64,000 nucleotides of DNA from the NCBI GenBank assembly GCA_951406725.2, contig OX597817.1, positions 76,570,001 to 76,634,000 on the forward strand, written 5' to 3'. Shown here one piece after another: positions 36,232-45,339 of the stretch; the stretch's first letter is position 1; each line of letters begins with the position of its first letter. This stretch comes from Octopus vulgaris. Lineage: Eukaryota. The notes beneath the pieces are model-generated. The model saw only the letters and a list, made by a program, of their open reading frames with translations, made no database searches and was not told the origin of the DNA. The position numbers and the translations under genes are program-made.

Positions 36232-39044
36232 TTATTATTATTATTATTATTATTATTATTATTATTATTATTATTATTATTATTATTATTATTATTATTA
36301 TTATTATTATTATTATTATTATTATTATTATTATTATTATTATTATTATTATTATTATTATTATTATTATTATTATTATTATTATTATTATTATTATTAT
36401 TATTATTATTATTATTATTATTATTATTATTATTATTATTATTATTATTATTATTATTATTATTATTATTATTATTATTATTATTATTATTATTATTATT
36501 ATTATTATTATTATTATTATTATTATTATTATTATTATTATTATTATTATTATTATTATTATTATTATTATTATTATTATTATTATTATTATTATTATTA
36601 TTATTATTATTATTATTATTATTATTATTATTATTATTATTATTATTATTATTATTATTATTATTATTATTATTATTATTATTATTATTATTATTATTAT
36701 TATTATTATTATTATTATTATTATTATTATTATTATTATTATTATTATTATTATTATTATTATTATTATTATTATTATTATTATTATTATTATTATTATT
36801 ATTATTATTATTATTATTATTATTATTATTATTATTATTATTATTATTATTATTATTATTATTATTATTATTATTATTATTATTATTATTATTATTATTA
36901 TTATTATTATTATTATTATTATTATTATTATTATTATTATTATTATTATTATTATTATTATTATTATTATTATTATTATTATTATTATTATTATTATTAT
37001 TATTATTATTATTATTATTATTATTATTATTATTATTATTATTATTATTATTATTATTATTATTATTATTATTATTATTATTATTATTATTATTATTATT
37101 ATTATTATTATTATTATTATTATTATTATTATTATTATTATTATTATTATTATTATTATTATTATTATTATTATTATTATTATTATTATTATTATTATTA
37201 TTATTATTATTATTATTATTATTATTATTATTATTATTATTATTATTATTATTATTATTATTATTATTATTATTATTATTATTATTATTATTATTATTAT
37301 TATTATTATTATTATTATTATTATTATTATTATTATTATTATTATTATTATTATTATTATTATTATTATTATTATTATTATTATTATTATTATTATTATT
37401 ATTATTATTATTATTATTATTATTATTATTATTATTATTATTATTATTATTATTATTATTATTATTATTATTATTATTATTATTATTATTATTATTATTA
37501 TTATTATTATTATTATTATTATTATTATTATTATTATTATTATTATTATTATTATTATTATTATTATTATTATTATTATTATTATTATTATTATTATTAT
37601 TATTATTATTATTATTATTATTATTATTATTATTATTATTATTATTATTATTATTATTATTATTATTATTATTATTATTATTATTATTATTATTATTATT
37701 ATTATTATTATTATTATTATTATTATTATTATTATTATTATTATTATTATTATTATTATTATTATTATTATTATTATTATTATTATTATTATTATTATTA
37801 TTATTATTATTATTATTATTATTATTATTATTATTATTATTATTATTATTATTATTATTATTATTATTATTATTATTATTATTATTATTATTATTATTAT
37901 TATTATTATTATTATTATTATTATTATTATTATTATTATTATTATTATTATTATTATTATTATTATTATTATTATTATTATTATTATTATTATTATTATT
38001 ATTATTATTATTATTATTATTATTATTATTATTATTATTATTATTATTATTATTATTATTATTATTATTATTATTATTATTATTATTATTATTATTATTA
38101 TTATTATTATTATTATTATTATTATTATTATTATTATTATTATTATTATTATTATTATTATTATTATTATTATTATTATTATTATTATTATTATTATTAT
38201 TATTATTATTATTATTATTATTATTATTATTATTATTATTATTATTATTATTATTATTATTATTATTATTATTATTATTATTATTATTATTATTATTATT
38301 ATTATTATTATTATTATTATTATTATTATTATTATTATTATTATTATTATTATTATTATTATTATTATTATTATTATTATTATTATTATTATTATTATTA
38401 TTATTATTATTATTATTATTATTATTATTATTATTATTATTATTATTATTATTATTATTATTATTATTATTATTATTATTATTATTATTATTATTATTAT
38501 TATTATTATTATTATTATTATTATTATTATTATTATTATTATTATTATTATTATTATTATTATTATTATTATTATTATTATTATTATTATTATTATTATT
38601 ATTATTATTATTATTATTATTATTATTATTATTATTATTATTATTATTATTATTATTATTATTATTATTATTATTATTATTATTATTATTATTATTATTA
38701 TTATTATTATTATTATTATTATTATTATTATTATTATTATTATTATTATTATTATTATTATTATTATTATTATTATTATTATTATTATTATTATTATTAT
38801 TATTATTATTATTATTATTATTATTATTATTATTATTATTATTATTATTATTATTATTATTATTATTATTATTATTATTATTATTATTATTATTATTATT
38901 ATTATTATTATTTTATTATTATTATATTATTATTATTATTATATTATTATTATTATTATTATTTTATTATTATTAATATTATTATTATTATTTATTATTA
39001 TATTATTATTATTATTATTATTATTATTATTTATTATTATTATT
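36232..39044. repeat. (TAA)n/(TTA)n array: perfect over 36232-38912 (about 893 units), degenerate over 38913-39044
   Basis: Direct reading. Confidence 0.98.
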
Positions 39045-43212: not shown

Positions 43213-45339
43213 TATTATTATTATTATTATTATTATTATTATTATTATTATTATTATTATTATTATTATTATTATTATTATTATTATTATTATTATTATT
43301 ATTATTATTATTATTATTATTATTATTATTATTATTATTATTATTATTATTATTATTATTATTATTATTATTATTATTATTATTATTATTATTATTATTA
43401 TTATTATTATTATTATTATTATTATTATTATTATTATTATTATTATTATTATTATTATTATTATTATTATTATTATTATTATTATTATTATTATTATTAT
43501 TATTATTATTATTATTATTATTATTATTATTATTATTATTATTATTATTATTATTATTATTATTATTATTATTATTATTATTATTATTATTATTATTATT
43601 ATTATTATTATTATTATTATTATTATTATTATTATTATTATTATTATTATTATTATTATTATTATTATTATTATTATTATTATTATTATTATTATTATTA
43701 TTATTATTATTATTATTATTATTATTATTATTATTATTATTATTATTATTATTATTATTATTATTATTATTATTATTATTATTATTATTATTATTATTAT
43801 TATTATTATTATTATTATTATTATTATTATTATTATTATTATTATTATTATTATTATTATTATTATTATTATTATTATTATTATTATTATTATTATTATT
43901 ATTATTATTATTATTATTATTATTATTATTATTATTATTATTATTATTATTATTATTATTATTATTATTATTATTATTATTATTATTATTATTATTATTA
44001 TTATTATTATTATTATTATTATTATTATTATTATTATTATTATTATTATTATTATTATTATTATTATTATTATTATTATTATTATTATTATTATTATTAT
44101 TATTATTATTATTATTATTATTATTATTATTATTATTATTATTATTATTATTATTATTATTATTATTATTATTATTATTATTATTATTATTATTATTATT
44201 ATTATTATTATTATTATTATTATTATTATTATTATTATTATTATTATTATTATTATTATTATTATTATTATTATTATTATTATTATTATTATTATTATTA
44301 TTATTATTATTATTATTATTATTATTATTATTATTATTATTATTATTATTATTATTATTATTATTATTATTATTATTATTATTATTATTATTATTATTAT
44401 TATTATTATTATTATTATTATCATCATCATCATCATCATCATCATCATCATCATCATCATCATCATCATCATCATCATCATCATCATCATCATCATCATC
44501 ATCATCATCATCATCATCATCATCATCATCATCATCATCATCATCATCATCATCATCATCATCATCATCATCATCATCATCATCATCATCATCATCATCA
44601 TCATCATCATCATCATCATCATCATCATCATCATCATCATCATCATCATCATCATCATCATCATCATCATCATCATCATCATCATCATCATCATCATCAT
44701 CATCATCATCATCATCATCATCATCATCATCATCATCATCATCATCATCATCATCATCATCATCATCATCATCATCATCATCATCATCATCATCATCATC
44801 ATCATCATCATCATCATCATCATCATCATCATCATCATCATCATCATCATCATCATCATCATCATCATCATCATCATCATCATCATCATCATCATCATCA
44901 TCATCATCATCATCATCATCATCATCATCATCATCATCATCATCATCATCATCATCATCATCATCATCATCATCATCATCATCATCATCATCATCATCAT
45001 CATCATCATCATCATCATCATCATCATCATCATCATCATCATCATCATCATCATCATCATCATCATCATCATCATCATCATCATCATCATCATCATCATC
45101 ATCATCATCATCATCATCATCATCATCATCATCATCATCATCATCATCATCATCATCATCATCATCATCATCATTATTATTATTATTATTATTATTATTA
45201 TTATTATTATTATTATTATTATTATTATTATTATTATTATTATTATTATTATTATTATTATTATTATTATTCTTCTTCTTCTTCTTCTTCTTCTTCTTCT
45301 TCTTCTTCTTCTTCTTCTTCTTCTTCTTCTTCTTCTTCT
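43213..45339. repeat. In-phase compound array (TAT)403-(CAT)251-(TAT)32-(TCT)23
   Basis: Boundaries read directly: 43213-44421, 44422-45174, 45175-45270, 45271-45339. Confidence 0.97.

Follow-up and report, generated by a model that had tools for sequence, protein, structure and literature searches.

A probable R4/Dong-type retrotransposon, intact, within kilobase-long triplet arrays of Octopus vulgaris

The 64,000-nucleotide window analysed here (Octopus vulgaris, GenBank assembly GCA_951406725.2, contig OX597817.1, positions 76,570,001 to 76,634,000; coordinates below are those of the window) holds an intact retrotransposon of 4,168 bp on the minus strand (39045-43212), with triplet tracts at both ends and perfect triplet arrays of kilobase scale on either side. 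An original prediction, made from the letters of the sequence, had proposed that this element may lengthen its own target, either by telomerase-like copying of a (UAA)n tail or by repeated nicking and slippage repair. Our results suggest instead that it is most likely an ordinary intact copy of a clade already known to target TAA, whose members are reported to be abundant and young in this group, and that the arrays are best explained, with roughly an even chance of being right, by the runaway growth of a single compound tract, driven by the host, together with a single insertion, targeting being biased towards length.

Triplet arrays on both sides of the element

The blocks of the compound tract are the following, with lengths and purity as they stand in the assembled sequence, their only source:

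36232..38912, minus strand: perfect (TAA)n, 2,681 bp, flanking the intact element on its 3' side and a truncated copy, B2, on its 5' side
38913..39044, minus strand: broken (TAA)n, 132 bp, with seven phase-shifting 1-nt indels and one in-phase change
43213..44421, minus strand: perfect (TAA)n, 1,209 bp; 5' flank of the element
44420..45174, minus strand: perfect (TGA)n, 755 bp, keeping the register of the two neighbouring TAA blocks
45173..45271, minus strand: perfect TAA, 99 bp, (TAA)33; outer end of the compound tract
45270..45339, minus strand: perfect GAA, 70 bp, (GAA)23; outer end of the compound tract

These arrays are far above the local background. Outside them, perfect runs of period 2-6 in the window reach 129 bp at most, and triplet runs 119 bp; 26 of the 28 TAA runs of at least 12 nt do not exceed 117 bp, and the two long ones make up 78% of all perfect TAA in the window (3,885 of 4,980 bp). 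The 1.2 kb of (TAA)n and 0.75 kb of (TGA)n originally described upstream of the element are borne out as perfect runs of 1,209 and 755 bp. The flawless 2.7 kb of TAA described downstream is indeed perfect over 2,681 bp, but it does not adjoin the element, from which it is separated by the 132 bp of broken repeat.

Of the 4,645 bp of perfect kilobase array, 1,964 bp (42%) lie 5' of the element. They include the 755 bp of TGA, a block 1.2 kb away that has also expanded. Every block junction is a single-base, in-register change, and without the element the tract would read as about 4.9 kb of GAA (70 bp), TAA (99 bp), TGA (755 bp) and TAA (about 4,020 bp). Since TGA and TAA blocks both expanded, the process appears to have been indifferent to the repeat unit, as expected of host slippage and repair.

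The broken stretch at 38913-39044 is of a different character: it has eight breaks, and at seven of them the phase shifts by 1 nt (five of the seven read as single-base losses), whereas no such shift occurs at the 22 breaks of the triplet tracts of at least 45 bp elsewhere in the window (Fisher p 4e-6). Its phase shifts also exceed the three found in 1,022 bp of the 3' tails of relatives from other animals (rate test p 2e-5, under a slightly different chaining rule). These breaks resemble unpolished long-read error, leaving the purity and exact length of the assembled arrays provisional.

The element and its protein

The anatomy of the element and the domains of its predicted protein are as follows:

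39045..43212, minus strand: full-length Dong/R4-type retrotransposon without long terminal repeats (non-LTR), bounded by triplet tracts; its 3' end meets TAA in the contigs of all four sequencing runs compared
39257..43075, minus strand: single open reading frame (ORF), 1,272 residues from the first ATG; conserved start probably Met46
43076..43212, minus strand: 5' leader, with an A42 run immediately 5' of the first ATG
39045..39256, minus strand: 3' untranslated region (UTR), 212 bp, whose final 118 bp match the decayed copy at 48881, at its 3' end, with 84% identity
Residues about 115-200: Myb-like N-terminal domain, weak
Residues 570-829: reverse transcriptase (RT), YMDD at 754
Residues 1085-1102: CCHC finger
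Residues 1170-1171 (PD) and D1186: restriction-like endonuclease (RLE)

The ORF had been described as an uninterrupted RT-CCHC-RLE frame of 1,272 residues, and this holds: all 1,272 codons from 43075 to 39257 are free of internal stops and the 3.8 kb carry no frameshift. Because the first ATG follows the A42 run (43075-43116) and homologs align their start near Met46, some 45 codons later, the working protein probably has about 1,227 residues, and the first ATG may be incidental. A second long homopolymer, A18T11, also lies within the element. The leader contains no ribozyme and no other Rfam family; a scan of 29000-52000 gave 28 Rfam matches up to E 1, none reaching its gathering score, and RNA folding was not significant for either the leader (z -1.7) or the 3' UTR (z -1.1). 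A target-site duplication is unreadable within a TAA repeat.

Pfam recognises RVT_1 at residues 570-829 (E 2.9e-27), with QGDSLSP and YMDD present. The C-terminal finger follows CX2CX8HX4C (1085-1102) and the endonuclease motif RPD-x14-D (1169-1186), and the residues of both are invariant or nearly so across 20 homologs, whereas a Pfam scan of the protein found no member of the APE endonuclease family. The AlphaFold model of residues 100-1272 is confident (predicted local distance difference test score, pLDDT, 88). Its best structural matches are R2 proteins of solved structure (E 1e-29 to 1e-35, TM score 0.52-0.58), which align over about 880-1,100 columns at 16-19% identity; the model matches them end to end, with no extra domain, and the search returned no close relative. 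The N-terminal domain is modelled as helical with high confidence (pLDDT 91.6). Many Myb/SANT domains are among its nearest structures, with rows of the VIA-align comparison including Zeste (Z 5.7, root-mean-square deviation 3.1, 67 aligned), TRF1 (Z 5.2, 2.8, 52) and residues 147-215 of R2Bm (Z 4.9, 3.6, 69), but all have Z below 8 and Foldseek gave no match at E 0.001. A Myb-like character of the domain is thus no more than suggested.

These features point to an element that is likely of the R4/Dong type, and of the known TAA-targeting Dong kind, an assignment that rests on predicted protein features and insertion context. A long ORF with a non-LTR RT is combined with CCHC and RLE motifs in the absence of APE, N-terminal zinc fingers are lacking and the insertion is in (TAA)n. 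The original description as an intact TAA-targeting R4/Dong element therefore stands, on domain order, TAA on both sides and TAA at the 3' end of the family. Members of the R2 clade carry N-terminal zinc fingers and target the 28S ribosomal DNA (rDNA); here, one regular-expression pattern for CCHH matched neither the protein nor the first 400 residues of 120 homologs (0/120), and 29000-52000 contains no ribosomal RNA match. R2 elements (R2Bm, R2Tg, R2Pm) share the RT-CCHC-RLE order and presumably the target-primed mechanism, and they differ in sequence (the 16-19% identity given above), in N-terminal fingers and in target.

Known R4/Dong elements (Bombyx Dong, DongAg, DongBg and ostracod Dong1/2) resemble ours in their single RT and RLE ORF without N-terminal zinc fingers, a likeness of features and not of aligned, labelled Dong sequences. 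As far as the sections available to us go, these elements also share the (TAA)n target (PMC7998251, PMC3812793), already reported for Dong in molluscs (PMC7998251), and those sections describe no kilobase flanking arrays. A weak Myb/SANT-like N-terminal domain is a further R4/Dong feature (PMC7998251), which the present protein may have as well. Homologs are numerous (1,460 at E 1e-50 or better, top identity 65%). In an RT-region tree of 39 rows, which includes no labelled Dong or R4, the protein falls in a supported clade (96/90) with two TAA-flanked relatives, L001 and L004; the ESM Atlas returned unnamed RT clusters only.

A young family

The suggestion that the element is young is upheld by a near-identical subfamily in assembled contigs. 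Among 24 listed runs of Logan contigs (12 studies, six organism labels), one of which may be the source of the window and hence not independent, 20 contain 69-92% of the words sampled from the element. A detailed comparison of the element body (39045-43075) covered four of the 24, whose contigs give no array length. In these four runs all 30 bins of the body are covered, 49, 33, 74 and 8 contigs have loose ends in TAA at the 3' end of the element, and at 127-145 sites a tenth or more of the depth shows a difference, a variation that points to older subfamilies. In one run, X8, six of the eight listed pieces (1,288 nt) differ by just three bases, which shows that a near-identical young subfamily exists. 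In the three larger runs the summed contig depth drops about 20-50-fold between the 3' and the 5' end, as expected from 5' truncation, but such depth does not measure copy number and we draw no evidence from it. None of the listed runs that contain the element is recorded as RNA, which carries no information on expression. Five Dong-R4 families of O. vulgaris, with 1,129 recently active insertions (4,732,901 bp), are listed in Table 1 of PMC13282606; their mean length is 4.19 kb against 4.17 kb here, a comparison of family identity by length only, and arrays beside the copies are not mentioned in the available part of that study. The window's repeat landscape, too, probably resembles that of an octopus. 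O. bimaculoides likewise has a reported full-length Dong ORF (PMC9115989).

A nest of Dong-type pieces

Besides the intact element, six older Dong-type pieces lie in the window:

35823..36231, minus strand: B2, the 3' end of a 5'-truncated copy from a second Dong-type family, with 93% identity to B1
34786..35693, minus strand: 5' portion of a third Dong-type family, in decayed form, preceded by a TAA tract of 129 bp
47242..47996, minus strand: B1, 5'-truncated second-family copy whose 5' end is inverted over 132 bp, flanked by TAA at either end
48069..48789, minus strand: probable older Dong-type relic between TGA and TAA tracts (weak, tblastn E 0.013)
48881..50746, minus strand: decayed 5'-truncated relative of the intact element, 78% nucleotide identity; TAG tract (66 bp perfect) on the 5' side, TGA tract (91 bp) on the 3' side
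30635..31921, plus strand: decayed Dong-type relic in a TAG/TAA tract of that strand

Each of the seven pieces lies with the TAA-type strand. On its own strand, every one of the seven starts right behind a TAA, TAG or TGA tract, and six have a triplet tract at their end too; six fall within 34.8-50.7 kb. Such a nest of repeated hits is what a sequence-specific element normally produces. The earlier statement that decayed copies have short flanks is accurate for perfect runs, which do not exceed 72 bp around the six old pieces, with the exception of B2, whose 5' junction is the far end of the 2,681-bp array.

Several other arrangements were seen in the nest. The 5' end of B1 (47862-47996) forms a palindrome of 132 bp, 92% self-complementary, as in an inverted or snap-back 5' junction. 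The flanks of the 78%-identical relative are TGA on the 3' side (48790-48880) and TAG/CAG on the 5' side (50747-50860), not TAA, which would reflect less strict targeting or, alternatively, a repeat unit that turned over later. An abundant SINE-like repeat (short interspersed element) with an internal TAA tract occurs at 30300-32060 and 32956-33490, with 15 further matches to one 211-bp piece; the relic at 30635-31921 appears to sit inside the TAA tract of such a repeat, which may seed Dong targets. At 33064-33279, a TAA tract switches strand midway (TTA, then TAA), making a head-to-head inverted microsatellite, and at 45340-47048 a nested non-coding insert of 1.7 kb splits a TTC/GAA tract and has repeated end motifs, presumably similar to those of Helentron-associated elements.

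Relatives in other animals

We also considered 92 related loci from other animals, 53 of which reach the C-terminus. Among the 23 long-ORF relatives (at least 900 residues, with C-terminus), nine end in a fully spanned TAA tract of 15-57 bp, five reach the end of the contig in or near TAA, and nine have no TAA tract of at least 15 bp. AAT is the first repeat 3' of 23 of the 53 loci, and the longest 3' TAA among them (299 bp) lies beside a copy whose longest ORF is 614 residues. Because these loci are mostly on short contigs, unable to span kilobase arrays, the comparison shows only that long arrays are not obligatory for long-ORF relatives.

Four long-branch relatives differ in their ends: L056 and L057 end in AT/ATGT repeats, and L053 and L066 in TAA more than 600 bp past the ORF, a possible change of target. 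Dong-type matches were also present in five contigs (L081, L083, L084, L090 and L091) of one bacterial metagenome-assembled genome (MAG) and in six other prokaryote records; those of the MAG are most likely host-animal DNA binned into it.

Discussion

The explanation that we favour, at the even chance given above, is the following. A compound triplet tract would have undergone runaway expansion, independent of the unit, through host slippage and repair, and the element would then have inserted into it, in an order of events that we infer; its removal restores a single tract. Following what is known of R2 and R4 biology, the Myb-like domain and the RLE would recognise and nick (TAA)n, and the nick would be the point from which the RT copies the RNA. 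More target sites would be on offer in a long pure TAA block and, since their number scales with array length, young copies would land in long arrays without any synthesis by the element, whereas the arrays around old copies would since have shrunk and decayed. If the two long arrays pre-existed, with 78% of the perfect TAA of the window, insertion there was to be expected. Host processes can expand pure tracts by hundreds to thousands of units, according to the part available of PMC11626148.

Several points weigh against this explanation. The only kilobase arrays in 64 kb sit on both sides of the only intact element, just as the original prediction would have it; the 78% figure presupposes that the arrays were older than the insertion; the relatives bear only on whether long arrays are obligatory; and the argument concerns this one locus in assembled sequence. 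The proposed relation between array length and element youth is accordingly seen at this locus, but in one element, and length-proportional targeting followed by decay predicts the same. More generally, a link between youth and flank length does not separate an element that makes its target from one that finds the longest.

Part of the purity may come from assembly polishing, which leads to a rival account that we hold to be doubtful, if deserving of serious attention: that the length of the arrays, their purity or both are products of assembly, from few noisy spanning long reads polished with the reads of other TAA loci. Polishing would have removed errors except within about one read length of the end of a multi-copy element, which is where the phase-shifting breaks of 38913-39044 are concentrated (seven of eight, none of 22 elsewhere), and the long homopolymers A42 and A18T11 occur in the same element. 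In the part available of PMC11912559, indels account for 55% of the errors that nanopore reads show in 3-bp repeats, with deletions the most frequent; the same source reports that nanopore sequencing tends to underestimate repeat length (in human, for short repeats), which goes against an inflated array. The 3.8-kb ORF is free of frameshifts, the blocks join sharply and in register, and the flanking DNA is a coherent nest, all of which also counts against this account.

It is also conceivable, though unlikely, that the element triggers expansion without templating it. Nicks by the RLE, repair of the insertion or transcription of the flanks would lead host polymerases to extend the whole tract to the left and right of the element, which would give later copies larger targets. 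Such a process would account for both sides and for the TGA block. In its favour, too, arrays are long only beside the intact copy, and the locus has been hit repeatedly, with six pieces in 34.8-50.7 kb. GAA is a triplex-forming repeat. In yeast, nicks beside (GAA)n strongly raise the rate and scale of expansion (part available of PMC11626148), but this result concerns GAA and not TAA. A nickase acting in trans should moreover lengthen TAA tracts anywhere, yet 26 other TAA runs of the window remain at or below 117 bp; long-ORF relatives with short, fully spanned tails exist, and the octopus locus is a single case.

Reiterative synthesis, in which the RT recopies a (UAA)n RNA tail in the manner of telomerase and writes kilobases of its own target, is in our estimation highly improbable. 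In target-primed reverse transcription, copying begins at the RNA's 3' end, and repeat added by a telomerase-like builder would be found at the 3' priming end and match the unit of the RNA tail. Since tail copying acts at the 3' end and a UAA tail cannot template TGA, the 1,964 bp on the 5' side, 755 bp of them TGA, speak against it, and the claim that the element synthesises its arrays is not supported. In its favour, the longest array is on the 3' side, and the broken 132 bp come in blocks of 3-9 units that could be a scar of repeated priming; if so, the phase would slip every 19 nt or so, and 2,681 flawless bases would then be impossible. Either reading of the 132 bp, long-read error or RT scar, therefore gives no support to synthesis on the kilobase scale. 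Relatives' 3' tails carry no excess of breaks with phase shift over their 5' flanks (3/12 against 2/14, p 0.63), and a family-wide priming scar is not supported by them.

The known cases of slippage differ in scale and position. UnaL2, the I factor, L1/Alu and RTE are APE-type systems. They are alike in that an RT lengthens or seeds simple repeats at the 3' end: slippage at the 3' repeat of UnaL2 is described as reminiscent of telomerase (PMC1636434), L1 expands the A-tails of Alu by slippage, with the I factor and R2 cited there as parallels (PMC3415434), and RTE seeds microsatellites (PMC2887409), each in the part of the source available. Their gains are on the scale of a tail and confined to the 3' side, and here kilobases lie on both sides; the Alu study, in the same part, has a doubling of the tail and argues that slippage stops as the complementary DNA grows (PMC3415434). 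Synthesis of the target, presented as the new aspect of this element, would thus be new at the kilobase scale but not at the small scale. Searches of open-licence literature found no report of kilobase arrays made by Dong or R4, which is no proof of absence from print.

As it most likely stands, the element is useful at most as a candidate active R4/Dong protein. A wider idea, which we rate as improbable, is that active Dong families enlarge their own targets, through the TAA-specific endonuclease or the repair of insertions, in a feed-forward loop that helps to inflate the microsatellite load of the genome. Such a nick-driven loop, if true, would parallel in nature the repeat expansion that nicks set off, would link the endonuclease of a retrotransposon to the growth of repeats on a large scale in the germ line of an animal, and would provide a cause for genomes rich in microsatellites.

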